Assembly (NCBI GenBank): GCA_034370385.1
Contig: JAXMKZ010000004.1
Span: 1,238-65,237 of the forward strand
Direction of reading: 5' to 3'
Length of the DNA: 64,000 bases
From: Coriobacteriia bacterium
GTDB taxonomy: Bacteria; Actinomycetota; Coriobacteriia; Anaerosomatales; PHET01
The notes beneath the pieces were generated by a model. The model was not told where the DNA came from, made no database searches, and saw only the letters and a list, made by a program, of their open reading frames with translations. Shown piece after piece: positions 5,032 through 55,161 of this stretch; the stretch's first letter is position 1, and each line of letters begins with the position of its first letter. The translations under genes were made by a program, and so were the position numbers.

Positions 5032-5060
5032 GGCGACAATGTAACATATCTGCCTCATTG

Positions 5061-8141: not shown

Positions 8142-8151
8142 GCGATCCGCC

Positions 8152-9282: not shown

Positions 9283-9355
9283 GTCGGATTACCCGTTGCC
9301 CGTGCGGGCGCTATGCTGCTTCCAGCGCCAGTACGATCCCAAGAAACGAGACAGC

Positions 9356-12182: not shown

Positions 12183-12331
12183 GAGTCACATCCGCGCAAG
12201 AGAACGTTCAAGGAAGCTCCTTGCCGAGGAGACAGCAGCCCGCACGACGGCGTTTCCTGTCGGGCTTTGGGCTCGCCAACTATATCATCGAGAAGCACAC
12301 CAGACGCCTTCCGAGGTTGGAGTCAGACAGT

Positions 12332-13462: not shown

Positions 13463-13463
13463 T

Positions 13464-13511
13464 TCGGCTGCGTAAGCCGACGGGATGGGCCACGGGGAGC
13501 CGAATGGCTCC
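13464..13511. terminator. Two short hairpins between convergent GT10 and GT2 genes (bidirectional terminator candidate)
   Basis: TCGGCT-GCGTA-AGCCGA (13464-13480) and GGAGCC-GAAT-GGCTCC (13496-13511), the latter followed by TT. Confidence 0.4.
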
Positions 13512-13517
13512 TTCGGG

Positions 13518-14531
13518 CTAGCGCCGGGGCTGAAAGACGCGCCTGACAGCGCTCAGCGCAGGCCTCGCCGACTCGAACGCACGGCCTAGCCCCATCATCC
13601 GCGCCAAGGCCCCGACACCCTGTCCGTTGAGCGATCTCCAGCGGAACAGACCATCAGCCCGCTCACGCGCAACAAGCTCTCGCAATGAGCCGTTGTTCTC
13701 ACGAGCGGTCACCGAGTGCACGTGCAGCAGGTAGTTGGTGGCGTGACGCGCGAGCAGGTCCGCATCCCCGGGCATGGGGGCCTCAAGCAGCACGTCACGG
13801 TAGTAGTGCATCAGCGCAATCGCCTGATCGTCAGTCAAGTTGGGATCGTGGGTGTCTTGCGCTGCGTGAAGCCGGTAGAGGACCAGTGGCTCGCGGATCA
13901 GGGCCGTGCTTCCCGATTTCGCCACCTCGAGAAGATAGGGGCGATCCCCGACGATGTGGAACCTCTCCAGTTCCGCGACGTACGATTCGGCCTTCAACAG
14001 CGCGGAACTTCTGTACATGGTCGACCCGAAGTGAAGCATGGTGTCGTCCATGATCCATCGCACGAGAGACGCCCGCTCCACGTGCAGCTCAACGGCTCCG
14101 GCGACGCCGCTCCACGTCTCGACGGGCGGCTCCAGTCCATCGGCGAACGCCTGGCACTCCGCCGCAATCCACGCCGCGTCGGCGTGCTCCTCCAGAAACC
14201 CGAGTTCCCACTCCACCAATCGTGGATGCATGATGTCGTCGTCATGAAAGACCATGCCGAACTCAGTGCGGGAGCATATCTCACGCGCCTTCGTCTGGTT
14301 CGGTCCCGAGCCGATGTTGCTTTCGTTGCGGATGTATTCGATGCCCAACGACGAGAATCGCTCCAACACCTGCGAGTAACTGCTGAGGCTCCCGTTGTCG
14401 AGCACCACGAGATCGAAGTCTCTGCGCGTTTGAGTCTCGATGCTGGCCAGAGTATCAGCCAAGAACTGCGGCCGCTCATACGTCGGAATGACGATCGTCA
14501 GTGGATTCAACCTGCTGGTCCTCGGAGACAT
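13518..14531 (-). CDS. Glycosyltransferase family 2
   Basis: LTIVIPTYERPQFLADTLASIETQTRRDFDLVVLDNGS... and a DDD motif. Start placed at ATG 14531 so that it does not overlap the upstream FkbM gene. Confidence 0.8.
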   Translation of the reverse strand: MSPRTSRLNPLTIVIPTYERPQFLADTLASIETQTRRDFDLVVLDNGSLSSYSQVLERFSSLGIEYIRNESNIGSGPNQTKAREICSRTEFGMVFHDDDIMHPRLVEWELGFLEEHADAAWIAAECQAFADGLEPPVETWSGVAGAVELHVERASLVRWIMDDTMLHFGSTMYRSSALLKAESYVAELERFHIVGDRPYLLEVAKSGSTALIREPLVLYRLHAAQDTHDPNLTDDQAIALMHYYRDVLLEAPMPGDADLLARHATNYLLHVHSVTARENNGSLRELVARERADGLFRWRSLNGQGVGALARMMGLGRAFESARPALSAVRRVFQPRR

Positions 14532-14590
14532 CGCACGGGAATCGGACGTGCACGGCATTGTCGCACAACCGCCTGACTCGCCCCCTGCGG

Positions 14591-15793
14591 CTAGACGCGG
14601 GGCACGGCGTAGCACACGGTATCGTCAATCTCGCGGCTGTGGTGTCGCAAGAATAGGTCACTGCCGGGCGCAAGCCGTCTGATGAGCAGGGGAATCGTCC
14701 ACAGGTCAGCGGGGAGGTGGTAAGCCGACACCGCCAGTTTGGGCGTGGCGCTCGAGAGCAGTCCAGCCGCCCCGAGAAGGGCGTCCGACTCCGAGCCTTC
14801 GATGTCCATCTTGATCAACGACGGCGCAGGGCGACCGGCGAAGTAGTCGTCTAGGCCGACCACCGGAACCTCATCGCCGCCCGGCTCGTCGTCTCCGAGC
14901 AAACGCGAGTCCGCTCCGGCAGTGCTCAAGAGACGCGCGCTGCTCGTGTGACGCCCCAGGCCCGCGCGCACGGCAGTGATGCGCTGAGGGTCCGTCGCGG
15001 CGACCTGTGCCAAGCGATCATAGCTCGCGCCGTCCGGCTCGAAGGCATAGTACGCGTCGAACTGTCCCGACGAGCACTGCAAGAAGGACTCGAGCGTGTC
15101 GCCGACATAGGCGCCCCCATCAACCACGACTTCATCGGCGCTCAGATCGTAGACGCCCGCCCCGAAGTAGACCGTCTCGGCCGACCCGATCTCGTCCAAG
15201 AGGTCCTTCTCGAGGCTAAGGTAGTAGCGGAGCTTGGACAGAAACACACGGCGTGACTCGTCGTCCGAGAACAGCGCATAGGCGGCCTCGATAGCCGTCC
15301 GATTGGCACCACTCGTCGCCGCATCGAACGCGCCTTGGTATTCGCGGCTCACGAACACATCCGGCAGCCGTAGGTTCAGATAGCCGATAGGCACAACCGC
15401 CTCGAGGCCACGAACCGTCAAGTCTTCGCAGATTGCGGAGTCGTGCATCGCGCTGGCCACAAGCACCACGTCGTCCGTGTGTACAGTCGCGATCTCCGCC
15501 GGCGAAAGCACCGGCAGCCCGTCGATCTCTTCGCCGTGCAGTGTTGGGTCACTGTCGCCGAACGCAACCACCTTCACGCCCATCTTCAACAAGCGAGCGG
15601 CGGCTTTCCTCCCCATGGATGCCGCCGGGTAGACGACCGTGCGGCGATTCCCCGCCAGCACCTCGTCGAGAACGCGGTAGCGCTTGTCCAGGGCCACTCG
15701 CCACTCTCGCGGATCGAGGTCAAGCAGAGCGGCAAGCTCAACGGGTGCCCCTGCAGCACGCTCATTGCGTCCGGCCAACGGGTCGGCGCTCAT
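14591..15793 (-). CDS. FkbM-family methyltransferase with an N-terminal extra (Rossmann-like) domain
   Basis: VVDGGAYVGDTLESF...AFEPD...LIKMDIEGSESDALLGA. ATG 15793 overlaps the rSAM stop (ATGA). Confidence 0.8.
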   Translation of the reverse strand: MSADPLAGRNERAAGAPVELAALLDLDPREWRVALDKRYRVLDEVLAGNRRTVVYPAASMGRKAAARLLKMGVKVVAFGDSDPTLHGEEIDGLPVLSPAEIATVHTDDVVLVASAMHDSAICEDLTVRGLEAVVPIGYLNLRLPDVFVSREYQGAFDAATSGANRTAIEAAYALFSDDESRRVFLSKLRYYLSLEKDLLDEIGSAETVYFGAGVYDLSADEVVVDGGAYVGDTLESFLQCSSGQFDAYYAFEPDGASYDRLAQVAATDPQRITAVRAGLGRHTSSARLLSTAGADSRLLGDDEPGGDEVPVVGLDDYFAGRPAPSLIKMDIEGSESDALLGAAGLLSSATPKLAVSAYHLPADLWTIPLLIRRLAPGSDLFLRHHSREIDDTVCYAVPRV

Positions 15794-16860
15794 GGCGTCC
15801 GCGGCGACAGGCGCTCGCCCACCATCAACATGTCGCAACGCTCGCTGCACTTGAGACCACGCGTGACATCGATGTGGTCCTGACGAAACGTGCGATATGC
15901 ATCGCCATTCCAGATGTCAGCCAAGCTCTGGCTACCGGCGTCGCCCAGAACGATCTCGTTGTCGAAGTCCTCCATGCACATACAGACCTCGCCGTTCGAC
16001 TTCACCGTCATGGACATCCACGGGTGCTTGCAGCACTCGCTCCAGTGCACCGATTGCGTGCCGTGGAAGTCCTTGCGATACCACTGCTGATCCTCGCTCT
16101 TGAGATAGAGGTACACGTCCCGACCGCGAAACGCTTCCTCGAGCTTGCGGTAGTCGTCCTGCTGGTTCTCCCGGTTGAGATCGAGCATCGTGATGACGAT
16201 GACGGTCGAGTAGCCGCGCTCCTGCTTGAGCTCCAGCAACCGGAGAATCTGCTCGTAGCTGCGCGAAAAGTCGGATGCCTCTCCGCGAATCGCTTTGTGC
16301 CGCTCGTCGTCGACACTCTCGATCGAATACTTGATGTAGCCGAGCCCGTTCTCGAACATCTCCACGGTGCGATCCATGTCGATGTTTGCGGGGTTGCAGC
16401 TGAAGTACGACTCAAGCCCGGCATCTGACAGTAGCTTGACGTAGTGAGCCATGTTTCGATCGAGCAAAGGGTCACCGTAGCCGTGGAGTTGAATGACCCG
16501 CGGGATGATGAGCAGGAAGAAGTGGTTCTCGCTCACGTCACCGGGGTGAATACCGTACGTCTCCGCGACGAACTGCTCCCATCGGCTCCAGGTCTCTGCC
16601 GGGAAAGGCCTGAGCTGCTCCACGAGCTTCTCGAACAGTTCGGGCTTCATCGTCTCAATATCGCGCGTCATCATCGTCGTCCGCGGGCACATGGCGCAGC
16701 GCATGTTGCAGGCGTTCGTGGTCTCTATGTTGTACACGATGGGGTCGAGACTCCGGTAGCTCTCCAAGGCATCACGCAAAGCCACCGGATCGTGCAGCTC
16801 CCCAGCCTGAGCGCTCCTGAGAAGGTCATGTGATTTCATGTAGAACTCGACGTCGTACAC
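15790..16860 (-). CDS. Radical SAM protein with Cys-rich SPASM-like C-terminal domain, function unknown
   Basis: 356 aa. CNMRCAMC is CX3CX2C. C-terminal CCKHPWMSMTVKSNGEVCMCMEDF...C.ERC. GTG 16860 is preceded by AAGGAGG. Confidence 0.8.
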   Translation of the reverse strand: MYDVEFYMKSHDLLRSAQAGELHDPVALRDALESYRSLDPIVYNIETTNACNMRCAMCPRTTMMTRDIETMKPELFEKLVEQLRPFPAETWSRWEQFVAETYGIHPGDVSENHFFLLIIPRVIQLHGYGDPLLDRNMAHYVKLLSDAGLESYFSCNPANIDMDRTVEMFENGLGYIKYSIESVDDERHKAIRGEASDFSRSYEQILRLLELKQERGYSTVIVITMLDLNRENQQDDYRKLEEAFRGRDVYLYLKSEDQQWYRKDFHGTQSVHWSECCKHPWMSMTVKSNGEVCMCMEDFDNEIVLGDAGSQSLADIWNGDAYRTFRQDHIDVTRGLKCSERCDMLMVGERLSPRTP

Positions 16861-16887
16861 TCGGCGCCTCCTTGGCGACGTGTTCGT

Positions 16888-17961
16888 TTAGGGCACTGTG
16901 GGCTTTGCCGCAGCTTCACCCGGGTAGATCACCGTCTCGACCACACCCGAAGCCTGTGAGCGCAAAGCAGCGAGCGCCACAGCGAGGCTCTGTGCCGCCT
17001 CGACGGCGGGGATGCGCGGCGCCTCACGACCCGCTAGACACTCCAGGAAATGGGCCATTTCGGCAAGGAACATCTCATTTCGATCGTAATCTCTCAGACT
17101 CTCATCCACAACGCACAGACCGTCGGTATCCCAGGCACGCAGGTGCGCCGCAAGCAGGTCCAGATGCAGCCTCCCACGCTCCATGATCAGTTCGATCTGG
17201 CGTATCGGCGGTCGCCGCGCGTAGGTCTGCTGAAGTTGCACGGGCACAGCGCGACCATCCATCAGGCAGGGCCACAGCGACACCGATGTGTCGTCCACAT
17301 CCACTTCGAGACTGCTGAGGTGACCCCCGACGCTGTACACCTGCGAGGGCCATCCCAAGATCCACCCCAGGCAGTCTATATCGTGAATCTGCGTGAGCAG
17401 CACACCCCCGCCCAGGTCGCGACGCGCAGCGTAGCCTGTCCGATAGTCCTCATAGGGGTGCCAGTCAGGCAAGTACTCACCGTAGGTCGATGCAGCGGAC
17501 AGAACGGGTCCGAACTCGCCCCCGTGGACAATGGTCCTCAGCCGCTCAAGAAGCGGATGAAAGCGAAGCTGAAAACCGACTAGGACGGGCATTCGGCTCT
17601 CTGAGGCCGCCGCGAGAAACTCCGGCACCCCGTCCCAGGAATGGCCGAGCGGCTTCTCGAGAAGAAGGCCGCATCCGGCCTTCACAACGGCGCGCGCGGT
17701 GGCGATGTGCATGCTCGTAGGGTTGGCGACTACGACGCCGTCGGGACGCTCCTCGAGTGCGCGGTCCAACTCATCGAAAACGCGGATACCCAGGCTCTCT
17801 TCCGGCAAGACACCGCTCTGGGGCTGCATCGAGTCGGAGAGCGCGGACCCCCCGCCGCGCCGACGCACGGCTGAGATTTCTACGCTATCGCCCAGAAGCC
17901 TGCGTAAGTTGCGAGCGTGCCGCTGTCCCGCGGCGCCGAGGCCGACGATGAGGATATGCAT
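16888..17961 (-). CDS. Gfo/Idh/MocA-family NAD(P)-dependent oxidoreductase
   Basis: 357 aa. MHILIVGLGAAGQRHARNL N-terminal Rossmann fold, EKPL motif (LLEKPLGHS) and C-terminal alpha/beta domain. Confidence 0.8.
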   Translation of the reverse strand: MHILIVGLGAAGQRHARNLRRLLGDSVEISAVRRRGGGSALSDSMQPQSGVLPEESLGIRVFDELDRALEERPDGVVVANPTSMHIATARAVVKAGCGLLLEKPLGHSWDGVPEFLAAASESRMPVLVGFQLRFHPLLERLRTIVHGGEFGPVLSAASTYGEYLPDWHPYEDYRTGYAARRDLGGGVLLTQIHDIDCLGWILGWPSQVYSVGGHLSSLEVDVDDTSVSLWPCLMDGRAVPVQLQQTYARRPPIRQIELIMERGRLHLDLLAAHLRAWDTDGLCVVDESLRDYDRNEMFLAEMAHFLECLAGREAPRIPAVEAAQSLAVALAALRSQASGVVETVIYPGEAAAKPTVP

Positions 17962-17965
17962 GCGT

Positions 17966-19765
17966 CTAGTCCGGAATCGGCGGAACGATCATGTTGCTCA
18001 GGAACTCGCCCCGTGGCAGAAACGGAAACATGTCCTCAAGCGGTCGCGACGCCATGCTTCCGTCGGGACGCTGGTAGGATGCCACACGCGGTTGCCGCGG
18101 TTCATCCGGGATTGCAACCACCCGGCAGATACAGGGTCCCGGAGCATCAAGTACGCGGCGAATGCCGTCCGCCACATCAGCTTGGTCGGCTATCTCGTCC
18201 GTCGGAAGGCAATAGGCCTCCGCGAGAGCGAGGACGCTCGGGAGGGTGAGGCCGCTCTCCGGATGCGCGCCGACGAGACGGTCAAAGTAGGCCGACTGTG
18301 CGCAGACAATCGATCCGTAGCCGCCGTTGTCGATGACGAAGACCTTCAGGGGCAGCTGCAGCCGCGCCACCACTTCCAGCTCGTGGGAGTTCATCTGGAA
18401 GCCGCCATCGCCCTCGACGCAGACAGTCTGCTGGCCCCCCGAAGCCAAACAGCCTCCCGTGGCCGCGGGCAGACCGAAGCCCATGGCACCCAATCCTGTC
18501 GTCAGGTACACGCGCTGTCCGGCCTTGGCGGCGTAGGACAGCAGGAACATCTCCACAGAGTTGCCGGAGCTCGCGGGTACCACCAGCGCGCCCTCGGGAA
18601 GCGCCTCGCACAGCGACTGGGTGAAGGTGTACATGCTGACTGGGCCCGTGGCCGGCAGCTCCCTGTCAACGAGCGGGTACGCCTCTCTCCAGGCGGCACA
18701 CTGCGCGATCCACGAGTCCACCGACGGCAACGTCCGGCTGCCCAACTGACGCAGGAGTTCGTGGATGAACTCCTTTGCGTCAGCGCACACGCTCAGATCA
18801 AGATGGGGCTCGATCTTGCCGATTTCCGCACTATCGATGTCCACCATTACCTTGCATGCACCGCGGGCAAGCCGATCCGGCGCGAAGGCGGTACACACCA
18901 GATCGAGCCGAGCGCCTATCGAGAGGAAGAAATCCGAGTTCTGTAGCGCGAAATTGGGCGCGCGCGGCGCCATGGAGCCGGGACGACCAACCAACAGCGA
19001 GTGATCGTCGGGAACGAGGTCAAGCGCCGGCCACGTCAGCCCGAAGGGAGCTCCTGCGGCGTCCACCAGCTGCCGCATCTCCGCCTCGGCGCCGGCGAGA
19101 CGAACGCCATTGCCGAACAGCAGGAAGGGGCGTTCGGCCGCCTCGAACAGGTCGAGTGTCTTGCTCACCAGTTCCTCGAGCGCGCCGGCGCCCACCACTT
19201 CGGCGCCCCTCAGTGGCTCGTAACCGACAAGAGTCGATTCTTCAACCGCCGCCCCTTGCACATCCAGGGGAATCTCCAGCCACACCGGACCGGGACGCCC
19301 TGAGGTGGCGAGGTGCACTGCCTTCTCAAGATGGTGCCGAATCATCGTCGGGTCCATCACCGTCACGGCGTACTTCGTGATGGACGATACGATCGTCGGG
19401 AGGTCCAACTCCTGAGGGCCCCTGTTGCGAACGCCGGAATCGCCCTTCAGGTCAGCACGCTTGACTTGACCCGAGATCACGAGCATCGGCGTGGAGTCGA
19501 GCCAGGCTCCCGCGACACCGGTGAGGGTGTTCGTGCCTCCGGGACCTGCCGTCACAACAGCGACACCCAGACGATTGTCGTACTTGGCATACGACTCTGC
19601 CGCGATTGCGGCCGCCTGCTCATGCAGATGGGCTACGAACGTGATCTCGTCGCGCCCGCCGATCGAGTCATTGAGGTGCATCGCTGCCCCACCCACGAGC
19701 ATGAAGACATGCCTGACGCCCTGGTCCACGAGAAACTGAGCGACGTAGTCTGACACCTTGATCAT
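17966..19765 (-). CDS. Thiamine-diphosphate-dependent enzyme of the acetolactate-synthase/YerE-like family
   Basis: 599 aa. N-terminal VRHVFMLVGGAAMHLNDS...HEQAAAIAAESYAK (Pyr domain) and C-terminal GAMGFGLPAATG...CVEGDGGFQMNSHEL (GDG-x-N ThDP/Mg motif). Confidence 0.85.
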   Translation of the reverse strand: MIKVSDYVAQFLVDQGVRHVFMLVGGAAMHLNDSIGGRDEITFVAHLHEQAAAIAAESYAKYDNRLGVAVVTAGPGGTNTLTGVAGAWLDSTPMLVISGQVKRADLKGDSGVRNRGPQELDLPTIVSSITKYAVTVMDPTMIRHHLEKAVHLATSGRPGPVWLEIPLDVQGAAVEESTLVGYEPLRGAEVVGAGALEELVSKTLDLFEAAERPFLLFGNGVRLAGAEAEMRQLVDAAGAPFGLTWPALDLVPDDHSLLVGRPGSMAPRAPNFALQNSDFFLSIGARLDLVCTAFAPDRLARGACKVMVDIDSAEIGKIEPHLDLSVCADAKEFIHELLRQLGSRTLPSVDSWIAQCAAWREAYPLVDRELPATGPVSMYTFTQSLCEALPEGALVVPASSGNSVEMFLLSYAAKAGQRVYLTTGLGAMGFGLPAATGGCLASGGQQTVCVEGDGGFQMNSHELEVVARLQLPLKVFVIDNGGYGSIVCAQSAYFDRLVGAHPESGLTLPSVLALAEAYCLPTDEIADQADVADGIRRVLDAPGPCICRVVAIPDEPRQPRVASYQRPDGSMASRPLEDMFPFLPRGEFLSNMIVPPIPD

Positions 19766-19769
19766 GGTG

Positions 19770-20270
19770 TCACCGCTCCCGATTCACATCGTGCTGGGCG
19801 ACCACGAGGTCGAGGACCTCGCGCACTGCGCCCTTGCCGCCGGCAGCTTGTGTCACGTAGGCGGCCCTGGCAAGCGCCGCGGGGTGCGCGTCAGCGGGAG
19901 CACACGCGACCCCCGCGATCTCCATCGCGGCCAGGTCGATCACGTCGTCTCCGATGAAGCAGGTCTCGGCCAGCTCGATGTTGTGCGTTCGGGCGAAATC
20001 GCCCAGCGCGGCTGCTTTGTCGTGGCACCCGGCGAAGACATCGCCGATCTTGAGCTTCGCAGCATACCGATGGACGAGGGCCATGCCGCTCTGGCTCGAT
20101 TCTCCGGAGACCAGCGCCACGACAATCCCCGCTTCGCGGGCAAGCGCGATTCCCGTGACGTCGGCGAAGCAGAAGCGTTTGAGTTCGACACCGTCGGCAC
20201 CCCACAGGAACGTGCCGTCCGTGAGAACGCCGTCCACATCCATCGCCACTGCCCGAACCTGGCGGAACAT
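19770..20270 (-). CDS. HAD-superfamily KdsC-type (ulosonate-phosphate) phosphatase
   Basis: ATG 20270 lies 1 nt after the upstream stop. AVAMDVDGVLTDG (DxDGV), ...LVSGESS..., ...FIGDDVIDL... is the pattern of Kdo-8-P/Kdn-9-P phosphatases. Confidence 0.75.
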   Translation of the reverse strand: MFRQVRAVAMDVDGVLTDGTFLWGADGVELKRFCFADVTGIALAREAGIVVALVSGESSQSGMALVHRYAAKLKIGDVFAGCHDKAAALGDFARTHNIELAETCFIGDDVIDLAAMEIAGVACAPADAHPAALARAAYVTQAAGGKGAVREVLDLVVAQHDVNRER

Positions 20271-20271
20271 G

Positions 20272-21141
20272 TCAGGTCTGATTGCGGAGGCGGGCGACGA
20301 TAGGGAGCTCACGCTCGAGCACCTTCTTCTCCGGACTGCCGAGACTGGTTTCAACGAGTCGAATATCGCGAACCAACTTGGTGAGTCCGCTGGGCTCTAG
20401 CGATGCTGCCTGGTCGGAGCCCCACATCGAGCGGTCGAGCGTTATGTGCCGCTCAACAACACAGGCACCCAGCGCGACCGCAGCGACAGTCGATGCCAAC
20501 CCCGTTTCGTGACCGGAGTAGCCGATGGGCACGTCGTACCGCTCGCGCAGCGTCTCCATCACGCGCAGGTTCAACTCGTCATAGCGAGCCGGGTAGGTGC
20601 TCACTGCATGCAGAAGTACGAGATTGTCCGTGCCGAGAATGTCCACTGCTTTGTCAATCTGCTCGATCGTGCTCATGCCAGTCGAGAGCATCACCGGCTT
20701 GCCGGTCGCACGCGTGCGCTTCAGTAGTGAGTCATCCGTGAGACTCGCAGAGGCGATCTTGAAGCACGGGAGATCGAACTGCTCCATGAACTCGACGGAC
20801 GGCTCGTCCCAGCATGATGCTGACCACTGGATGTCATGCTTGCGGCAGTGCTCGTCAATCGCGCGATACTCCTCGATGCCGAACTCGACGCGCTCTCGAT
20901 AGTCCATGTACGAGATGTAGCCCCAGGGCGTCTCACGCATGAGATCGCGCTGCGCCGCGGGCACGCAGATGCTAGGAGTTCGCTTCTGGAACTTGACCGC
21001 ATCGCATCCCGCAGCCGAGGCGATTTGGATGAGTCGCTTGGCGATTTCGATATCGCCGATATGGTTGATGCCGATCTCCCCGATGACATAACAGGGGTGT
21101 TCCGGCCCGACCATTTTGTTTCCGACGGAGAGTGATTTCAT
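20272..21141 (-). CDS. NeuB-family (sialic/ulosonic acid synthase-like) PEP-condensing enzyme lacking the C-terminal SAF domain
   Basis: 289 aa. CYVIGEIGINHIGDIEIAKRLIQIASAAGCDAVKFQKR...KIASASL...LSTGMST...YSGHE...VERHITLDRS is the NeuB TIM barrel. The ORF ends about 50-60 aa short of canonical NeuB. Confidence 0.8.
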   Translation of the reverse strand: MKSLSVGNKMVGPEHPCYVIGEIGINHIGDIEIAKRLIQIASAAGCDAVKFQKRTPSICVPAAQRDLMRETPWGYISYMDYRERVEFGIEEYRAIDEHCRKHDIQWSASCWDEPSVEFMEQFDLPCFKIASASLTDDSLLKRTRATGKPVMLSTGMSTIEQIDKAVDILGTDNLVLLHAVSTYPARYDELNLRVMETLRERYDVPIGYSGHETGLASTVAAVALGACVVERHITLDRSMWGSDQAASLEPSGLTKLVRDIRLVETSLGSPEKKVLERELPIVARLRNQT

Positions 21142-21200: not shown

Positions 21201-22103
21201 CTACTTTCGGCGACGACAGACGGCGCCCATCACGTACGAATCCCTGCCACTGACCGTAACCGCGAAGGTCGTTCGCTCCTCGACCAGCAATCCAACGCCT
21301 TCCAGAAGCGCCGTCAGGGCGTCCTCGGTGTAGAAGTTCACATGCTCATGCCAGTGTCGCTTCGACAGGTACGCTGCTTCCGGGTCCACGGCTTCACGCA
21401 CGACAGCCTCGTGCGGAACTTCGACCCACAGCGACGTACTAGGTCTCATCGCCCGCACGGCCTCAGTGAGGACGTCCTCGGGGAACGGCACGTGCTCAAG
21501 CACCTGGCTCACCACAACAAGGTCGTACTCATTGTCGATCGCCTCGTTCGCCGTAACGCGTTGAGCCCCGGTGATCACGGGCTTTTCGGAGATGTCGTAG
21601 ACGTGATGAACCGCCACCTCATGCCTGAACGGCGTGTTCAGACCGGTGTCCCCACCCCAATCGAGAACGCCCTCGACCCGCCCGATGCGCTCACGAAGGA
21701 ACTCCTCGACGTGGGGGATGTAGGAGTAGCCTCCCACCAGATCGTCGTTTCTTGCCTGATAGTCGGGCTCAAACCTGAGGCGCAGCGCCGTGTACTCTGC
21801 GTCTCGATATCCGTGATAGAGGGCCGCCAGTTCTTCGTCATCAAACCGGATGTCAAGGAATACCAAGCCGCAATCATTGCACCTCAGGGTGTTGCAGACC
21901 GAGTAGGCCATGCCGCACTTGAGATCGCGCATGTTCCACTCCGGCGTGATCTCAACTGGCTCCCATCCAAAGACGCGGCTGGCGACGAAGGGCATCAAGA
22001 CAGCTGGCGTCCTGGAGAGTCGATTGCCGCCGCAGCACACACACTCCTTCGCGACACGCGGACGCTGTCTGGTACTCACGCTCGCCTCCTCTTCCGCTGC
22101 CAC
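21201..22103 (-). CDS. Class I SAM-dependent methyltransferase with N-terminal double CxxC Zn-ribbon
   Basis: CVCCGG...CNDCG, then VLDWGGDTG...VVSQVLEHVPFPEDVL. An alternative GTG start at 22079 gives a GTGA overlap with the upstream stop. Confidence 0.7.
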   Translation of the reverse strand: MAAEEEASVSTRQRPRVAKECVCCGGNRLSRTPAVLMPFVASRVFGWEPVEITPEWNMRDLKCGMAYSVCNTLRCNDCGLVFLDIRFDDEELAALYHGYRDAEYTALRLRFEPDYQARNDDLVGGYSYIPHVEEFLRERIGRVEGVLDWGGDTGLNTPFRHEVAVHHVYDISEKPVITGAQRVTANEAIDNEYDLVVVSQVLEHVPFPEDVLTEAVRAMRPSTSLWVEVPHEAVVREAVDPEAAYLSKRHWHEHVNFYTEDALTALLEGVGLLVEERTTFAVTVSGRDSYVMGAVCRRRK

Positions 22104-23146
22104 TCAATCGTCCGACTCACCGCTTCGCACAGATCCACGGTCTCTCTCAGCCCGAGTTCCTCACGCGCACGCTGCGTCGATGGCACGTAGCGGTCGCCGC
22201 CACCTCCGAGATTCTCGACGCGGGTGCCAGCGATCGACACCCGTGGTGCACTTTGAAACGCCGCGGCGACGGTGCGTGCGACCTCGGCGATGCTGTGACC
22301 GTGCTCAGACCCGACGTTGTAGGCGCGTCCGCTCTCGCCTGCCAGAAGAATCGTCCAGAGCCACGACGCGAGCTCGGCCGCGTACAAGTACGACCGTACC
22401 GGCGTCCCATCACCTCGAACGCTGATCGGACCGCCAGCAAGTCCGTCGCGGATGAAGTTGCCCACGGCGAAATGGGCGTCCAGCGGCAAGTGCGGCCCGA
22501 CGAACGCGAAGCAGCGCGCAATCTTCACCGGCACCCCATGCTGAACCGCGTAGGTCGCACACAGTGTCTCCGCAAGACGTTTCGCCTCCGGGTAGGCCGA
22601 ACCCGCAGCCAGCGGGTCGGGACCGCCCGGCTGCTCCTCGGAGATCAGTTCAAGGTCGCCCGGCTGGACCCCGTACACAGCTCCCGAACTCGTGAAGAGC
22701 ACCCCGGAAGAGCCCCATGAGCGTGCGGCGTCGAGCACATTGCGCGTACCCCGCACGACCGTGTCGATCATGCGGAGCGGATCAGTCGCATTCTGTTGGG
22801 TGCTCGACTCGGCGGCTGCGTGAATCACGTGGGTGAACGGGCCAGCAGGGGCCTCGAAGTCGGTGACGTCGCCCTGAAGTAGTGATATCCCCGGATCCGA
22901 GGCGAGATGAGGCACCTTGGCAGCGAAGCGCTCAGGGTCGCGAGTGAGCACGACCGCGCTCGCATCAAGCGACAACACTCGATTCGCCCACGCGAACGAC
23001 TCCAGCAGCCACGTCCCAACGAACCCTGTGCCTCCCGTGATGAAGATCCGAGCTCCACTGAGACTGCTCCATGCCTCGGCGGAAGACTCAAGGATGCCGT
23101 CGAGATCCGAGGCGAGCGGATTGGCGTCACCGGCGTCGCGCAGCAT
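22076..23146 (-). CDS. NAD-dependent epimerase/dehydratase-family SDR (candidate CDP-4-keto-dideoxyhexose reductase/epimerase)
   Basis: 356 aa. RIFITGGTGFVGTWL, YPEAKRLAE (YxxxK). Its start shares one nt with the rfbH stop. Confidence 0.75.
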   Translation of the reverse strand: MLRDAGDANPLASDLDGILESSAEAWSSLSGARIFITGGTGFVGTWLLESFAWANRVLSLDASAVVLTRDPERFAAKVPHLASDPGISLLQGDVTDFEAPAGPFTHVIHAAAESSTQQNATDPLRMIDTVVRGTRNVLDAARSWGSSGVLFTSSGAVYGVQPGDLELISEEQPGGPDPLAAGSAYPEAKRLAETLCATYAVQHGVPVKIARCFAFVGPHLPLDAHFAVGNFIRDGLAGGPISVRGDGTPVRSYLYAAELASWLWTILLAGESGRAYNVGSEHGHSIAEVARTVAAAFQSAPRVSIAGTRVENLGGGGDRYVPSTQRAREELGLRETVDLCEAVSRTIEWQRKRRRA

Positions 23147-24483
23147 CAGATACGCACCGCCGAACGCAGGACTTTGACCATGTAAGCGAGCATCTCCTCG
23201 GTCATCCCGGGGTACACGCCGATCCAGAAGGCGTCTCGCATGATGCGATCGGTGTTGACCAGCTCGCCGACGACGCGGAAACCATCGCCCGATTCCCGCA
23301 TGCGGTCGAACACCGGCTGGCGCACCATGTTCCCCGCGAACAGCATCCGGGTCTGGATCTTGGCGGCCTCAAGCGCTCCCACCAGCTCATCGCGGGACAC
23401 AGGTGCGCCCTCATGCACCGTCATGAGATAGCCGAACCATGAGGGGTCCGACCCTTCAGTCGCCATGGGCATGATCAAGACGTCTTCGAGCGGCTGCAGC
23501 TCCTCTCGCAGGTACGCGTAGTTCTCCCTGCGCCGCGCCGTGAACTCCGGGAGCTTCTCGAGCTGCGCTACGCCGATCGCGGCCTGCATGTCAGTCGCCT
23601 TCAGGTTGAAGCCGAACTCCGAGTAGACGTACTTGTGGTCGTACCCCCTCGGCAAGGTGCCGAACTGCTGCGAGAAGCGCTTCCCGCAGGCGTTGTCTTT
23701 GCCCGACGGGCAGACGCAGTCGCGGCCCCAATCGCGCATCGACAGCATTATCTCTGCGAGCTGGTCGTTGTCCGTGTAGACCGCGCCGCCCTCGCCCATA
23801 GTCATGTGGTGCGGCGGGTAGAAGCTTGAGGTGCCGATATCTCCGAACGTGCCCGTCTTGCGCCCGCGGTACTCCCCGCCCAGGGCATCGCAGTTGTCCT
23901 CGATGAGCCACAGTGCGTTGGCGTCACAGAACGCCCGTACTGCGTCGATGTCGAACGGGTTGCCGAGCGTGTGGGCGAGCATAACGGCCTTGGTCCTTGG
24001 CGAGAGCGCCGCGTCAAGTTGCGTGACATCGATGTCGTACGTTCCCAGCGCCACGTCCACGAAGACCGGCACCGCCCCGAACTGGACGATCGGCGCAACG
24101 GTGGTCGGGAAGCCCGCAGCGACCGTGATCACCTCGTCACCCGGACGCATGGCGCGGTCGCCCAGCCAGTCGCTCGTTAACGCCGCGAACGCGAGCAGGT
24201 TGGCACTTGAGCCCGAGTTCACGAGCAGTGCGTGCTTGATGCCCAGATACTCGCCGAGCCCTGCCTCGAAGTCGCGCGAGTAGCGACCGTAGGTCAGCCA
24301 GAAGTCGAGTGATGAATCCACGAGATTCACGAGTTCGCGCTCGTCGAAGACCCTGCTCGCATATGCGACGCGACTCTCCCCGGGCACGAACACGGGTTTC
24401 GCGGCGAACTGCTCCGCATGGTACGCGCGGGTCAGCTCCAATATCTGCTGCCGGATGTCTTCGGCGCGATTGTTGTCGGTCAC
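23146..24483 (-). CDS. rfbH: CDP-4-keto-6-deoxy-D-glucose 3-dehydrase (E1; RfbH/DdhC, DegT/DnrJ/EryC1 family)
   Basis: [15 protein letters not shown]-terminus resembles Salmonella Rfb[24 protein letters not shown] has His in place of the PLP Lys. [11 protein letters not shown] gives the C-x-C-x7-C iron-sulfur motif. GTG 24483 overlaps the rfbG stop (GTGA); the longest ORF starts at 24504. Confidence 0.85.
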
Positions 24484-25619
24484 GCCACTTCTCCTTGCGC
24501 CCATGCGATGCCACTGTGTGCGGCGGCCGCTGCGTACGCCTCAAGGTCGGTCTCGACCAGCGCCGATGCGTCTTGCCCCGTAGCGTAGGCTCGGTACCAC
24601 GAAGCGGTGCGCACGACCGTATCCTCAAAACTCCAGACCGGGCGCCACTTCAACACCTGTGCCGCTTTGCGAACGTCGAGCCGAAGAATCGCGGCCTCGT
24701 GCGGCTGCTCTTGAAGCTCGGGGGCATGCCAAGACCCCTCGCCCCATGTCGCGATGAGTTGGTCAACGACCTCACCCACCGTGCGAGCAGAGTCCGGGTC
24801 GGGTCCGAAATTGTAGGCGCCTTGCTCAGCTTCCTCACACCAGAGCGCTGCAGCCAGATGCAGATAGCCCGACAGGGGCTCAAGCACATGCTGCCACGGC
24901 CGAATCGAAGCTGGATTGCGAACGATGATGCTTGAGCCTGCCAACAATGCGCGCGCGCAGTCGGGCACAAGCCGATCTTCGGACCAGTCCCCGCCGCCGA
25001 TGACGTTGCCCGCACGCGCCGTCGCGATTGCGGCGGTACCCGGGGTACTGAAGAATGATGCCCGGTATGAGGCCGTCAGTATCTCGGAGGCCGCCTTGCT
25101 GGCGCTGTAGGGGTCATGGCCTCCCAGAGGCCGGTCCTCACCGAATGGCTCACCCGTTTCAGAGTTCGCGTAGACCTTGTCGGTAGTGACATTCACCACT
25201 ACCCGACAGTCGGCGCAGTCCCGAACGGCCTCCAGAAGATTGGCCGTGCCCATGACGTTGGTCTCGAACGTGTAGCGCGGCTGGGCATAGCTCCTGCGCA
25301 CCAGCGGCTGAGCGGCCAAGTGAATGACGGTCTCGGGTCGGATTTCGGCAACCAGCGCCGCGATGCCCCCGGCATTCCGAATGTCGCCGATCCGGCTATC
25401 CACCAACTCGTGCAGTGCCAGATCGGCGAACAGCGACGGCGATGTATCCGGCTCGAGCGCATACCCGAAGACCTCAGCACCCAAATCAACCAGCCAGCGG
25501 CTGAGCCAGGAGCCCTTGAATCCTGTGTGCCCCGTGACAAGAACCCGGCGACCCGAGAACACCCCACCGAATGGTGCCACCTCTACCAAACCTTCCAGGG
25601 GGCCTCGCCGGACTCCCAT
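24480..25619 (-). CDS. rfbG: CDP-glucose 4,6-dehydratase
   Basis: [32 protein letters not shown] (YxxxK), [14 protein letters not shown]. An alternative GTG start at 25580 would avoid overlap with rfbF. Confidence 0.9.
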
Positions 25620-26353
25620 AACGCTTCCAGCAGCTGTTTGTCACGTAGCGTGTCCATCGGCTGCCAGAAGCCGGTGTGCTTGTACGCGACCAGCTCCCCC
25701 GATGCCGCGATGCTCACCAGTGGCTCCTGCTCCCACATGGTGTCACTGTCCCCGAGGTGGTCGAAGATACCGGGCTCAAGCACGAAGAATCCGCCGTTGA
25801 CCCATCCACCATCACCCTGCGGTTTCTCCTGAAACGACAGCACCGCCTGCTCGTGAGTGAGGTCCATCGCTCCGAAGCGACCGAGGGGCTGGACCGCCGT
25901 GACGGTGGCCAGTTTCGCGTTTCGCTTGTGGTACTCGATGGTGCCCGCGATGTCGACGTCTGCGACTCCGTCTCCGTAGGTGAGAAGAAACGTCTCGCCG
26001 TCAAGGTAGTCCTTGATGCGCCGTATGCGACCGCCCGTAGGAGTCTCGGCCCCTGTGTCGACAACCGTGACGCGCCACGGTTCATTGGCATCCTGGTGAA
26101 TGATCGTCTCGTGCGTGCGTAGATCAAAGGTGACGTCACAGTTGTGAAGCCAGTAGTTCTTGAAGTACTCCTTGATCTGGTAGCCCTTGTATCCCGCACA
26201 GATGACGAAATCATTGATTCCGTAGTGGCTGTAGATCTTCATGATGTGCCACAGAATCGGCTTCTCACCGATCTCGGTCATGGGCTTGGGGCGCAGAACG
26301 GTCTCCTCGGACAGGCGCGTCCCGAGTCCACCGGCCAGAATGACGACCTTCAT
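25583..26353 (-). CDS. rfbF: Glucose-1-phosphate cytidylyltransferase
   Basis: ATG 26353. MKVVILAGGLGTRLSEET..RPKPM.EIG.KPILWHIMK.Y...G...F.IC.GYKG is the typical RfbF/DdhA pattern. GAGGAG SD. Confidence 0.9.
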   Translation of the reverse strand: MKVVILAGGLGTRLSEETVLRPKPMTEIGEKPILWHIMKIYSHYGINDFVICAGYKGYQIKEYFKNYWLHNCDVTFDLRTHETIIHQDANEPWRVTVVDTGAETPTGGRIRRIKDYLDGETFLLTYGDGVADVDIAGTIEYHKRNAKLATVTAVQPLGRFGAMDLTHEQAVLSFQEKPQGDGGWVNGGFFVLEPGIFDHLGDSDTMWEQEPLVSIAASGELVAYKHTGFWQPMDTLRDKQLLEALWESGEAPWKVW

Positions 26354-26366
26354 ACCCGACTCCTCA

Positions 26367-27332: not shown

Positions 27333-27336
27333 GGCT

Positions 27337-29864
<2,528 letters not shown>

Positions 29865-29910
29865 GTGGGGTCTCCGAGTGGGTGATCGACCGGGCATGCG
29901 AATGCCTGCG

Positions 29911-43883: not shown

Positions 43884-43907
43884 GTGATTCGACCCCCTCG
43901 CTCTTCG

Positions 43908-52964: not shown

Positions 52965-55091
<2,127 letters not shown>

Positions 55092-55153: not shown

Positions 55154-55161
55154 TGGAGTTC

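Follow-up and report, generated by a model that had tools for sequence, protein, structure and literature searches.

The genes described here probably encode a convergent, two-arm route to an acyl-branched 3,6-dideoxyhexose, in which a ulosonic acid would be grafted onto a CDP-sugar by a ThDP enzyme instead of being CMP-activated. They lie in a 64-kb stretch (the window) of a 178-kb contig from an incomplete metagenome-assembled genome of a Coriobacteriia bacterium, and the pathway was deduced from sequence, phylogeny, and gene context. We compared the gene neighborhoods of about 110 related loci. They share a core consisting of a SAF-less NeuB-like synthase, a KdsC-like phosphatase, and a YerE-like ThDP enzyme beside canonical rfbF, rfbG, and rfbH, usually accompanied by an FkbM methyltransferase and a UXS-like SDR. 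The evidence favors the original prediction of a deoxysugar that is branched-chain or higher-carbon and possibly methylated.

The layout of five tightly spaced, co-directional genes, as first described, was reproduced from the minus-strand sequence and the list of open reading frames (ORFs) (Table 1). The TGA stop of the NeuB-like gene (20272 to 20274) is separated by 1 nt from the KdsC-like gene (ATG at 20270), which is followed after 4 nt by the ThDP gene (ATG at 19765) and, after another 4 nt, by the Gfo/Idh/MocA (Gfo) gene (ATG at 17961). The 27-nt gap before the radical SAM gene (GTG at 16860) includes the motif AAGGAGG. The stop of this last gene overlaps the start of the FkbM gene (ATGA at 15790 to 15793), and the two are translationally coupled. 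All of the domains named earlier (PF03102, TIGR01670, TPP N/M/C, GFO_IDH_MocA, Radical_SAM, and SPASM) were found with Pfam and NCBIfam. Close spacing by itself is normal for operons; the block stands above chance because it is conserved across loci.

Table 1. Operon features, with positions numbered within the 64-kb window
Feature	Position	Strand	Supporting matches and remarks
rfbF, glucose-1-phosphate cytidylyltransferase	25583..26440	-	TIGR02623 equivalog, 427.7 bits (cutoff 300); ORF as listed; match begins only at residue 30, pointing to a probable true start farther downstream
rfbG, CDP-glucose 4,6-dehydratase	24480..25619	-	TIGR02622 equivalog, 454.7 bits (cutoff 278)
rfbH (E1), CDP-6-deoxy-glucos-4-ulose 3-dehydrase	23146..24504	-	NF011936 equivalog, 715.8 bits (cutoff 423)
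Extended SDR, UXS/dTDP-glucose-dehydratase-like	22076..23146	-	Pfam Epimerase, 138.6 bits
Class I SAM methyltransferase (Methyltransf_23)	21201..22103	-	PF13489, 54 bits; public gene call (L001) 21201-21995
SAF-less NeuB-like PEP-condensing synthase	20272..21141	-	PF03102, 273 bits
KdsC/YrbI-type HAD-IIIA phosphatase	19770..20270	-	TIGR01670, 121 bits (cutoff 107)
YerE-like ThDP carboligase	17966..19765	-	Pfam TPP_enzyme N, M, and C domains
Gfo/Idh/MocA sugar oxidoreductase	16888..17961	-	PF01408 and PF22725 (C3 domain)
Twitch-like radical SAM enzyme	15790..16860	-	Pfam Radical_SAM and SPASM
FkbM-family methyltransferase, 400 aa	14591..15793	-	PF05050 and TIGR01444
GT2 glycosyltransferase	13518..14615	-	PF00535, 52 bits; public gene call (L001) 13518-14531

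Judged by family cutoffs, the block sits in a genuine CDP-dideoxyhexose gene set: RfbF, RfbG, and RfbH all exceed their equivalog thresholds. The family assignments of RfbF, RfbG, and RfbH give good support to CDP-4-keto-3,6-dideoxyglucose as the predicted product of RfbH, which would serve as the acceptor for the ThDP step. The E3 reductase partner of E1 was not found anywhere in the 64-kb window. The SDR gene is kept immediately after rfbH in most related loci, with orthologs (41 to 58% identity) adjoining rfbH or the NeuB-like gene in L002, L006, L007, L014, L020, and L022. The top PDB match of the SDR is UDP-glucuronate decarboxylase (106 bits); we infer that the SDR, as a candidate reductase of nucleotide sugars, would act on the branch ketone in the manner of YerF.

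The NeuB-like protein had been described as lacking SAF, and Pfam indeed returned no SAF match in it; the protein stops before the AFPL/SAF domain, which orients ManNAc. Its top PDB match, 6ncs (290 aa), is likewise SAF-less, and it falls under the NeuB and PseI equivalog cutoffs of NCBIfam. It retains the equivalents of NmNeuB E25, K53, Q55, K129, S132, Y186, S213, H215, E234, H236, and D247, with Ser at the position of E134, and is catalytically intact as judged by this residue conservation. The assignment of its neighbor as a KdsC-type phosphatase also stood, with a score over the TIGR01670 cutoff and a DVDGVLTDG motif in the sequence. This protein misses the equivalog cutoffs for KdsC (126 versus 208) and KDN-9-P phosphatase (104 versus 180).

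Phylogeny bore out the suggestion that the ThDP enzyme beside rfbF/G/H follows the logic of YerE. In a neighbor-joining tree, it forms a clade with JanthE, described as YerE-like (PMC12188165), at 100% bootstrap, and E. coli IlvB, IlvI, and Gcl fall outside this clade. JanthE also leads the PDB ranking (8rph, 365 bits), ahead of 5ahk (258 bits) and true AHAS enzymes (at most 233 bits), and the protein scores under every AHAS equivalog cutoff of NCBIfam. Tree and ranking thus place it apart from housekeeping AHAS/IlvB, a grouping that the original prediction had left as an alternative. The ThDP enzymes linked to NeuB-like genes are monophyletic (99%) and nested within the JanthE clade. Their closest outgroup (46% identity, 95% support) comes from L010, a locus in which an HMGL-like pyruvate aldolase occupies the exact NeuB/KdsC position; the second, L013, is a plain yersiniose-type locus with the order rfbF-H-G-SDR-ThDP-GT2.

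The radical SAM enzyme was initially called SPASM-type. Its Pfam SPASM match was confirmed, but this match holds just four invariant cysteines (C277/C295/C338/C342, after C51/C55/C58 and an extra C155), enough for a single auxiliary cluster, which makes twitch-like the better description. BtrN is the top PDB sequence match (E value of 1e-11), and an AF2 model (pLDDT 83.9) gave DesII and BtrN as the best Foldseek matches. These nearest relatives of known structure are carbonyl-forming sugar-radical enzymes, and we propose that the window enzyme would form a carbonyl on a sugar-acid chain via dehydrogenation or diol dehydration. The PDB matches of the Gfo protein are weak, and all are sugar dehydrogenases or ketoreductases.

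Radical SAM orthologs (62 to 67% identity) adjoin SAF-less NeuB genes in CMP-type loci that have no ThDP gene, and orthologs stand beside SAF-less NeuB, HAD, and CTP_transf_3 genes in Elusimicrobia, Saganbacteria, Syntrophales, and Nitrospirae. Directly after the radical SAM ortholog of L030, a CMP-ulosonate locus from Nanoarchaeota, comes a Gfo homolog (32% identity, 187 bits), and the gene order in L072 is Gfo, radical SAM, CTP/HAD fusion, and NeuB-like. Weak homologs of the Methyltransf_23 protein lie beside NeuB-like/HAD genes in CMP-type loci L023 to L025. Because both the Gfo and radical SAM genes recur beside NeuB-like genes in CMP-type loci, we assign them to the ulosonate arm, with which they travel as candidate paired tailoring enzymes. 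The Gfo gene is not present in the minimal loci L020 to L022, and in other lineages AP_endonuc_2 and an SDR (adh_short) take the downstream position of Gfo/radical SAM. By gene context, then, the two are accessory and not core. The block is conserved in other genomes, but with Gfo/radical SAM optional the five genes do not amount to a complete pathway of their own, and the core is formed by the NeuB-like, KdsC-like, and ThDP genes.

It is possible, though rather unlikely, that the radical SAM and Gfo enzymes act after ligation on the CDP-branched sugar, for example, in side-chain deoxygenation or epimerization, with the two-arm scheme unchanged. The genes lie downstream of the ThDP gene in the window, their replacements hold that same position in other lineages, and DesII, the top fold match, works on a nucleotide sugar. 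However, the radical SAM, Gfo, adh_short, and AP_endonuc_2 families all adjoin NeuB-like/HAD genes in loci without ThDP or CDP-sugar genes, and L002 and L003 encode fusions of AP_endonuc_2 with NeuB.

The same five-gene block recurs in other Coriobacteriia, in Eubacteriales, and on one unassigned metagenome contig; no characterized locus containing it was found. The organisms bearing it are all uncultured. NeuB-like, KdsC-like, and ThDP genes are contiguous in Coriobacteriia, Eubacteriales, Acidobacteriota, Isosphaeraceae, Gemmatimonadota, and Kiritimatiellia. A survey of gene neighborhoods, the check originally suggested, found this adjacency in 30 of 32 metagenomic loci that have enough flanking DNA and carry either a window-type KdsC-like gene downstream of a NeuB-like gene or a ThDP gene; rfbF/G/H were present in 14 of the 17 such loci having at least 4 kb upstream. 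One protein (P0019, 773 aa) is a fusion of the KdsC-like phosphatase to the ThDP enzyme, whereas in the ThDP-less sister loci L096 and L072 the phosphatase is fused to CTP_transf_3 (CMP-ulosonate synthetase). The two kinds of fusion suggest that the ThDP enzyme takes the slot of the CMP-synthetase, consuming the free ulosonate. As noted from the outset, the window has no NeuA/KdsB: neither tblastn with three CTP_transf_3 proteins nor Pfam scanning of nearly all ORFs found any in the 64 kb, and none occurs in any ThDP-type locus gene table examined. The two-arm model would explain this absence, since the ulosonate would go to the ThDP enzyme.

These data make it quite unlikely that the locus encodes two separate sugars, a C2-branched yersiniose type made by a YerE enzyme acting on pyruvate and a Kdn/Kdo-like ulosonate, served also by the radical SAM and Gfo enzymes, that is CMP-activated by a synthetase encoded elsewhere. 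A sister clade of the NeuB-like protein does work with CTP_transf_3, NeuB-type synthase, KdsC-type phosphatase, and CMP-synthetase constitute the established Kdn pathway (PMC6200933), and the genome is visible in part. Against this stand the core contiguity, the phosphatase-ThDP fusion, the separate 99% clade apart from the L013 enzyme, and the lack of CTP_transf_3 among the ThDP-type loci examined. It is very improbable that the ThDP enzyme acts before NeuB, decarboxylating or ligating a short 2-oxo acid, for instance (phospho)hydroxypyruvate, to provide the aldehyde that the NeuB-like enzyme joins to PEP, with a separate CDP-dideoxyhexose: aldehydes are common products of ThDP decarboxylases and the NeuB-KdsC-ThDP gene order does not fix the reaction order, but the enzyme falls in a clade of ketone-accepting YerE-like carboligases and not simple decarboxylases, the phosphatase fusion places it after ulosonate dephosphorylation in parallel to the CMP-synthetase fusions, the ulosonate would still have no activating enzyme, and the linkage to rfbF/G/H is strong.

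In the favored two-arm route, RfbF, RfbG, and RfbH (E1) would convert glucose-1-phosphate to CDP-4-keto-3,6-dideoxy-D-glucose, with the E3 reductase supplied from outside the window. In the second arm, the NeuB-like enzyme is proposed to join PEP to an aldose phosphate, giving a 3-deoxy-2-ulosonate phosphate from which the KdsC-like enzyme would free the ulosonic acid, a sialic-acid-like keto acid. In this lineage, the Gfo enzyme would reduce the carbonyl made on the ulosonate chain by the radical SAM enzyme, for a net epimerization or deoxygenation, and Methyltransf_23 may likewise act on this arm. Phylogeny, synteny, and fusions point to the ThDP enzyme as the junction; it would remove CO2 from the ulosonate and attach the resulting acyl-anion equivalent at the C4 ketone of the CDP-sugar, yielding a tertiary alcohol with a polyhydroxyalkyl-acyl branch. 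The SDR would reduce the branch ketone, and FkbM may methylate the product; in many of the related loci, minimal ones included, the FkbM gene comes after the ThDP gene. The GT2 protein, with no TM segment predicted by hydropathy scan, is the candidate for transfer of the completed CDP-sugar, possibly into a fucose-containing surface glycan.

Several observations count against the two-arm model besides the missing E3. 3-Deoxy-2-ulosonic acids are mostly cyclic hemiketals, so the ThDP enzyme would have to trap the minor open-chain form. L052 and L071 have NeuB-like and KdsC-like genes and no ThDP gene, and no rfb gene lies within 10 kb in the Kiritimatiellia locus. The same NeuB-like clade pairs with CMP-synthetases in other loci, and such an enzyme could act in trans from beyond the window. 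Not every published relative has conformed to the scheme proposed for acyl-branched sugars: MyGE did not accept ketones in vitro, and neither did RhopE and SpirE after heterologous production (PMC12247030).

The framework for acyl-branched sugars has already been published as a "unifying scheme," and the block is a variant of this scheme, not a new kind of pathway. Since a 3-deoxy-2-ulosonic acid is a 2-oxo acid, the NeuB/KdsC logic would join the donor class of YerE in that scheme. There, YerE-like enzymes use 2-oxo acid donors, and for ErwE, MMAR_2332, and MyGE an aldolase, a ThDP enzyme, and a reductase are combined, with hydroxylated 2-oxo acids as donors (PMC9306805). In the operon described here, NeuB/KdsC stand where the published scheme has the aldolase, as seen in the outgroup locus L010; the operon is a widespread, uncharacterized variant of a known branched-sugar route.

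The conserved block, widespread in uncultured bacteria, is probably a variant of the published acyl-branched-sugar scheme. Its five genes lie on the minus strand at exactly the coordinates and spacings of the original prediction, as checked in the ORF list and the sequence, and the domain calls held as well: PF03102 without SAF for the NeuB-like protein, TIGR01670 for the KdsC-like phosphatase, TPP_enzyme N, M, and C for the ThDP enzyme, GFO_IDH_MocA for the Gfo protein, and Radical_SAM plus SPASM for the radical SAM enzyme. The surrounding CDP-3,6-dideoxyhexose operon is real, with RfbF, RfbG, and RfbH, encoded by the CDP-4-keto-3,6-dideoxyglucose genes beside the ThDP gene, each scoring above its equivalog cutoff. 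A conserved UXS-like extended SDR is a candidate for the YerF-like enzyme that would reduce the branch carbonyl with NAD(P)H. Upstream of the rfb genes, a GDP-fucose arm heads the operon, and the locus also encodes glycosyltransferases and a Wzx-like flippase. Together with a GT10-like gene inside the operon, the GDP-fucose genes suggest a fucose-containing glycan as the destination of the branched sugar. A role as GtrB-type polyprenyl-phosphate transferase is unsupported for the GT2 protein of the window, which has no TM segment. GT2 plus GtrA pairs occur in the related loci L020 and L021 and in the locus of P0019, a related HAD/ThDP fusion protein. The NCBI start of the NeuB-like protein is Met10 (280 aa), yet 289-aa homologues align from residues 1 to 3.

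Positions of the genes discussed, in the window and in related loci (L numbers) from other genomes and metagenomes
Feature	Source	Position	Strand	Remark
NeuB-like	window	20272-21141	(-)	1 nt to KdsC-like gene
KdsC-like	window	19770-20270	(-)	4 nt to ThDP gene
ThDP enzyme	window	17966-19765	(-)	4 nt to Gfo gene
Gfo/Idh/MocA	window	16888-17961	(-)	27 nt with AAGGAGG to radical SAM gene
Radical SAM	window	15790-16860	(-)	ATGA overlap with FkbM start, 15790-15793
Methyltransf_23 ORF	window	21201-22103		300 aa (public call, 264 aa); overlaps upstream SDR gene by 28 nt
UXS-like extended SDR	window	22076-23146
rfbH (E1)	window	23146-24504
GDP-fucose arm	window	26367-29897	(-)	ManC, GMD, Fcl-like
GT10-like	window	12221-13462	(+)	fucosyltransferase family; opposite strand to operon
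AbiEii-type nucleotidyltransferase toxin homologue and weak AbiEi_4 antitoxin-like gene	window	29946-30641 and 4390-5094	(-)	locus edges
PLD-domain protein	window	38088-40673	(+)	861 aa
HemD-HemC-HemA and CcmF-CcmE	window	43065-46338 and 52965-55848	(-)	tetrapyrrole synthesis and cytochrome c maturation in the MAG
Schlafen AlbA_2/HATPase_c_4/wHTH protein	window	46473-47891	(-)
NeuB+SAF+AP_endonuc_2+CBS fusion	L002 (Gemmatimonadaceae)	7671-10004		directly upstream of ThDP gene
NeuB+SAF+AP_endonuc_2+CBS fusion	L003 (Kiritimatiellia)	7688-9985		directly upstream of ThDP gene
YerE-like ThDP cluster	L010	6357-14590		ThDP gene after HMGL-like aldolase; flanked by LicD and PAP2-GDPD protein
HAD + dehydroquinate-synthase-like fusion	L013 (Muribaculaceae MAG)	12845-14566	(-)	573 aa; adjoins plain yersiniose-type cluster
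CTP_transf_3-HAD fusion	L096	6762-7991		409 aa; ThDP-less ulosonate locus
CTP_transf_3-HAD fusion	L072	6719-8008		429 aa; ThDP-less ulosonate locus
Methyltransf_23-HAD fusion	L025	3423-4757		444 aa; ThDP-less ulosonate locus
Radical_SAM+SPASM protein	L073 (metagenomic)	8995-9807		270 aa (BtrN-sized); in KdsC-like slot between NeuB-like and ThDP genes
B12-binding radical SAM	L023	10752-12140		likely C-methylase
B12-binding radical SAM	L024	3785-5173		likely C-methylase
B12-binding radical SAM	L029	3573-4961, 9051-10439		likely C-methylases

All three domains of the ThDP enzyme score above cutoff (PF02776, N/PYR; PF00205, middle; PF02775, C/PP), and the GDG motif and activating Glu can be read in VEGDGGF and HEQAA. 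A housekeeping acetolactate synthase (AHAS) is ruled out by equivalog cutoffs, PDB ranking, and an NJ tree. TIGR00118 (AHAS) gives 325 bits against a cutoff of 538, with the other AHAS models also far below theirs. The best PDB match is 8rph (JanthE; 365 bits, 35% identity), followed by 5ahk (258 bits), which we take to be the Pseudomonas protegens YerE homologue, and true AHAS enzymes reach at most 233 bits. JanthE is described as a YerE-like carboligase that accepts ketones and carries an unusual CDG motif (PMC12188165), and this motif is visible in the alignment. In the NJ tree (500 bootstraps; YpYerE, ErwE, and MMAR_2332 sequences not included), the NeuB-linked ThDP enzymes are monophyletic (99%) and have as their sister (95%) the enzyme of locus L010, where the gene of an HMGL-like pyruvate aldolase lies just upstream. 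The next branch out (82%) is the enzyme of the Muribaculaceae locus L013, with the plain order rfbF-rfbH-rfbG-SDR-ThDP-GT2; JanthE branches next (100%), and E. coli IlvB, IlvI, and Gcl fall outside. The original prediction had named a grouping with housekeeping IlvB as its refutation; the enzyme sits instead in the 100% JanthE clade. No ilvN-like small-subunit gene adjoins the ThDP gene in the ORF list. The activity we propose is carboligation of a 2-oxo acid to a ketone, which would give a tertiary alcohol. The L010 cluster itself looks like one of the erwiniose type, set in a phosphodiester-glycan context.

The NeuB-like protein matches PF03102 with 273 bits. It keeps all metal, PEP, and catalytic residues mapped from Neisseria meningitidis NeuB (equivalents of E25, K53, K129, S132, S213, H215, E234, H236, and D247 in NmNeuB numbering) except E134, for which the ThDP-linked clade has Ser or Thr. 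The SAF domain (PF08666) gives no match in it, and the protein ends at residue 289, about residue 290 of NmNeuB. In canonical NeuB, the AFPL/SAF domain orients ManNAc and adds active-site residues such as R314 (PMC11339185). NeuB/PseI equivalog cutoffs are not reached (TIGR03569, 258 against 400; TIGR03586, 216 against 340), and the nearest solved relative is 6ncs, a 290-aa SAF-less protein. The SAF-less family is 70 to 85% identical across phyla, a level of conservation that suggests a common primary metabolite as substrate. ThDP-linked and CMP-linked SAF-less NeuBs are sister clades (100% joint bootstrap, 45 to 50% identity). The phosphatase passes the YrbI/KdsC subfamily model TIGR01670 (121 bits; cutoff, 107), with the HAD motifs DVDGVLTDG, SGE, DK, and GDDVID, and stays below the specific equivalogs for KdsC (NF007019, 126 against 208) and KDN-9-P phosphatase (NF058599, 104 against 180). 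Such proteins are at present named "acetolactate synthase" and "N-acetylneuraminate synthase" in databases; at the sequence level neither name is supported, because the ThDP enzyme lies outside the AHAS clade and the synthase is without the ManNAc-orienting domain. The length of the branch would follow from the aldose phosphate that the NeuB-like enzyme uses.

In the unifying scheme that Steitz et al. 2022 put forward for acyl-branched sugars and in part demonstrated, an aldolase of the HpaI, BphI, or citrate-lyase type supplies a hydroxylated 2-oxo acid, which a YerE-like ThDP enzyme (ErwE, MMAR_2332, MyGE) ligates to CDP-4-keto-3,6-dideoxyglucose, and a YerF-like reductase reduces the branch ketone (PMC9306805). 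ErwE does not accept pyruvate but requires gamma-hydroxy 2-oxo acids, MyGE takes donors up to C8, and the physiological donors are proposed to be polyhydroxylated 2-oxo acids of up to C8 (PMC9306805). A NeuB-type synthase and, after it, a KdsC-type phosphatase yield a 3-deoxy-2-ulosonic acid; such an acid is a gamma-hydroxylated 2-oxo acid and thus belongs to this donor class, which joins the NeuB/KdsC logic to the YerE logic. The best-supported mechanism, and one we consider somewhat probable, is a ulosonate-donor variant of this known pathway. The NeuB-like and KdsC-like enzymes would make a free 3-deoxy-2-ulosonic acid from a sugar phosphate, the ThDP enzyme would graft it with decarboxylation onto CDP-4-keto-3,6-dideoxyglucose, and an optional twitch radical SAM/Gfo pair, also seen in CMP-ulosonate pathways, would tailor the chain. 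The original prediction, which had seen both logics in the block, was essentially right, and the two would be linked through ulosonate as the 2-oxo-acid donor. Against the ulosonate-donor model, ulosonates are mostly cyclic in solution. It also counts against the model that several published YerE-like enzymes showed no ketone acceptance in vitro (PMC12247030).

Related loci, mapped by tblastn and from public gene tables, define three types. The minimal type, rfbF-rfbG-rfbH-(UXS-like SDR)-NeuB-like-KdsC-like-ThDP-(FkbM)-GT2, is that of Isosphaeraceae (L020, L021, and L022). An expanded, aerobic type with additional AP_endonuc_2, Gfo, and adh_short SDR genes is carried by Acidobacteriota (L006 to L009, L012, L014, and L015), Gemmatimonadaceae (L002), and Kiritimatiellia (L003/L004). 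The window type, with Gfo and radical SAM genes, comprises the window, L005 (Eubacteriales), L011 (Coriobacteriia), the P0019 contig, and partly L085. A scan of the genome collection gave MAGs only and no cultured carrier with a known glycan structure. We further took a census of 80 metagenomic loci with SAF-less NeuB-like genes (57 to 81% identity). The ThDP gene is adjacent in 30 of these; 12 have a window-type KdsC-like gene with the contig end too near for ThDP to be judged, 2 have a KdsC-like gene without a ThDP gene, 25 are of the ThDP-less "type II," and 11 are undetermined. Genes of the rfb set are present in 14 of the 17 ThDP loci having at least 4 kb upstream, and the 14 ThDP loci with at least 6 kb downstream divide into 6 with no tailoring set, 7 with AP_endonuc_2/SDR, and 1 with radical SAM. 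Two loci without a ThDP gene and one without nearby rfb genes speak against the ulosonate-donor model.

We regard gene fusions as the strongest single argument for ulosonate as the substrate of the ThDP enzyme. P0019, a 773-aa protein with 64% identity to the window ThDP enzyme, joins a KdsC-like phosphatase and a ThDP enzyme in one chain, and its locus has the order NeuB-like, HAD/ThDP, Gfo, radical SAM, FkbM. In type II loci (L096 and L072), a CTP_transf_3-HAD fusion lies just upstream of the SAF-less NeuB gene. We infer that the phosphatase is fused to the consumer of free ulosonate, which would be the CMP-synthetase in type II loci and the ThDP carboligase in ThDP loci. Type II locus L096 also has two sulfotransferase genes and a Capsule_synth gene. 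Another fusion, in L002 and L003, joins AP_endonuc_2 and a CBS domain to a SAF-containing NeuB (765 to 777 aa); we speculate that its AP_endonuc_2-CBS part is a KdsD-like sugar-phosphate isomerase supplying the NeuB substrate.

A ThDP enzyme that consumes ulosonate would also explain the missing NeuA/KdsB. The absence of a CMP-ulosonate synthetase (CTP_transf_3) from the 64-kb window, noted in the original prediction, was upheld by Pfam scans of essentially all ORFs and by tblastn with three CTP_transf_3 proteins, and the domain is absent from the gene tables examined for ThDP-type loci too. It is possible that such a synthetase is encoded in trans, outside the window. A gene for E3, the RfbI/AscD-type reductase of RfbH (E1), was likewise not found within the 64-kb window, though rfbH is canonical, and this counts against the ulosonate-donor model. 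A gene for an FNR-like protein of about 230 aa directly follows rfbH in L020 and the P0019 locus.

In the radical SAM enzyme, the CX3CX2C motif (C51/C55/C58) is invariant and PF13186 (SPASM) scores 53.7 against a cutoff of 21.5. Its eleven diverse homologues share, as cysteines, only these three, C277/C295/C338/C342, and C155. Because only four C-terminal cysteines are invariant, the pattern indicates a twitch-like enzyme with, presumably, one auxiliary cluster as in BtrN. BtrN is the top PDB sequence match (E value of 1e-11, three colinear segments), with only a marginal SkfB match besides. Foldseek with the AlphaFold model (pLDDT of 84) placed DesII and BtrN best, then SuiB/SkfB and BlsE, with AprD4 at rank 25. 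A full two-cluster SPASM enzyme (seven or eight cysteines) or a peptide maturase was rejected given the four C-terminal cysteines, the lack of precursor-peptide context, and the finding that the best structural relatives are sugar enzymes. With Gfo as query, the PDB search gave weak generic sugar-dehydrogenase matches only.

The radical SAM family keeps 62 to 88% identity across Nitrospirae, Elusimicrobia, Saganbacteria, Syntrophales, and Nanoarchaeota. Five ThDP-less loci have an orthologue within the NeuB/HAD/CTP_transf_3 cluster, in four of them directly upstream of the SAF-less NeuB gene, and three of these four have a DegT aminotransferase gene directly upstream of the radical SAM gene. 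In Nanoarchaeota (L030), the gene directly after radical SAM encodes a protein homologous to the window Gfo (32% identity, 187 bits), and L072 has the order Gfo, radical SAM, CTP/HAD fusion, NeuB-like. Gfo, adh_short, and AP_endonuc_2 genes likewise stand beside NeuB-like/HAD genes in ThDP-less loci. Because all four tailoring genes accompany NeuB-like/HAD there, we assign them to a putative ulosonate arm. The same evidence downgrades the alternative of a radical SAM enzyme working on the already ligated CDP-sugar as a simple replacement for AP_endonuc_2 and SDR; L024, which has SDR and radical SAM together, also speaks against simple replacement. Within the ulosonate arm, the partner of the radical SAM gene is either Gfo (reductase/dehydrogenase) or a DegT aminotransferase. 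On the simplest reading, the radical SAM enzyme would introduce a carbonyl into the sugar-acid chain, through either dehydrogenation or diol dehydration. The extra invariant C155 would also fit an epimerase mechanism, for which HygY and NeoN offer a parallel. In Elusimicrobia, Saganbacteria, and Nitrospirae, the CMP-type loci with a twitch radical SAM/NeuB pair also carry B12-binding radical SAM genes, a sign that anaerobes make uncharacterised ulosonic acids with heavy modification.

More tentatively, we suggest a portable ulosonate arm across bacteria and DPANN archaea, consisting of the SAF-less NeuB, the KdsC-like phosphatase, and an optional twitch radical SAM/Gfo or AP_endonuc_2/SDR pair, with two fates, CMP activation or ThDP-dependent grafting onto CDP-4-keto-3,6-dideoxyglucose. 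If so, the grafting fate would be previously undescribed and would yield very large (about C11 to C14) branched surface sugars, never isolated, and the radical SAM enzyme would represent a new family of carbohydrate-radical enzymes with free ulosonic acids as substrates, which in anaerobes would correspond to the AP_endonuc_2/SDR set. Should the ulosonate-donor model be right, ulosonic acids would be carbon-chain building blocks for ThDP chemistry, beyond their use as CMP-activated glycosyl donors, and acyl-branched sugars would extend from the known C2 to C7 branches to sugar-acid-derived ones. The model also predicts a family of undescribed surface monosaccharides in uncultured lineages that abound in soil and anaerobic settings (Acidobacteriota, Coriobacteriia, Planctomycetota, Verrucomicrobiota, and Gemmatimonadota). 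The ThDP enzymes may accept polyhydroxylated donors and ketone acceptors to give chiral tertiary alcohols, as biocatalysts, and a very conserved, unannotated twitch radical SAM family gains a concrete substrate context.

Compared with known systems, the window radical SAM enzyme shares with the sugar-acting BtrN (2-deoxy-scyllo-inosamine dehydrogenase) and DesII a radical SAM core and a single C-terminal twitch domain, at only 15 to 18% identity and TM-scores of 0.46 to 0.56. It is about 100 residues longer than BtrN, has an N-terminal helical extension and the extra C155, and, unlike both, stands in a ulosonate gene context. The ThDP-less sister loci (radical SAM or adh_short, Gfo, CTP_transf_3-HAD fusion, SAF-less NeuB), found in Elusimicrobia, Saganbacteria, Syntrophales, Nitrospirae, Nanoarchaeota, and many metagenome contigs, are to our knowledge also uncharacterised. 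They share with the window the SAF-less NeuB clade, the radical SAM family (62 to 67% identity), and similar HAD, Gfo, and Methyltransf_23 partners, but their endpoint is CMP activation, DegT aminotransferases and B12-radical SAM methylases are frequent in them, and they have neither the ThDP enzyme nor rfbF/G/H.

For Kdn, a NeuB-type synthase acting on sugar phosphate and PEP, followed by a KdsC-type phosphatase, is established, with BT1714 (synthase), BT1713 (phosphatase), and a CMP-Kdn synthetase in Bacteroides thetaiotaomicron; the CMP-Kdn pathway is also known from Prymnesium parvum (PMC6200933). The window likewise pairs a NeuB-family synthase with a KdsC/YrbI-type HAD phosphatase; unlike the Kdn pathway, it has a ThDP carboligase in the consumer slot of the CMP-synthetase, a synthase without SAF/AFPL, and a phosphatase below the KDN-9-P equivalog cutoff.

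Acyl-branched sugars are made by YerE/YerF (yersiniose A), ErwE/ErwI/ErwF (erwiniose), MMAR_2332/MMAR_2331 (caryophyllose), and MyGE/MygI (gastriose) (PMC9306805). The locus is not a mycobacterial caryophyllose/LOS or other characterised one, as its source is a Coriobacteriia MAG and published clusters use pyruvate aldolases. No pyruvate aldolase was found in the window, where the NeuB-like and KdsC-like genes take that slot. A literature search outside the survey of Krug et al. 2024 found nothing on NeuB with YerE or on radical SAM with nonulosonic acid; that in-silico survey reportedly covers over 200 YerE-like clusters, possibly with the window class among them. The window differs from the acyl-branched systems in its proposed donor-forming pair, a PEP-dependent SAF-less NeuB-like synthase and a KdsC-type phosphatase, in the added twitch radical SAM/Gfo pair and FkbM and Methyltransf_23 methyltransferases, and in its carriers, which are all uncultured. 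Like these systems, it has the ThDP gene beside CDP-4-keto-3,6-dideoxyglucose genes, a 2-oxo-acid-forming enzyme, and a reductase candidate, and its ThDP enzyme belongs to the JanthE clade, as sister to an aldolase-linked enzyme.
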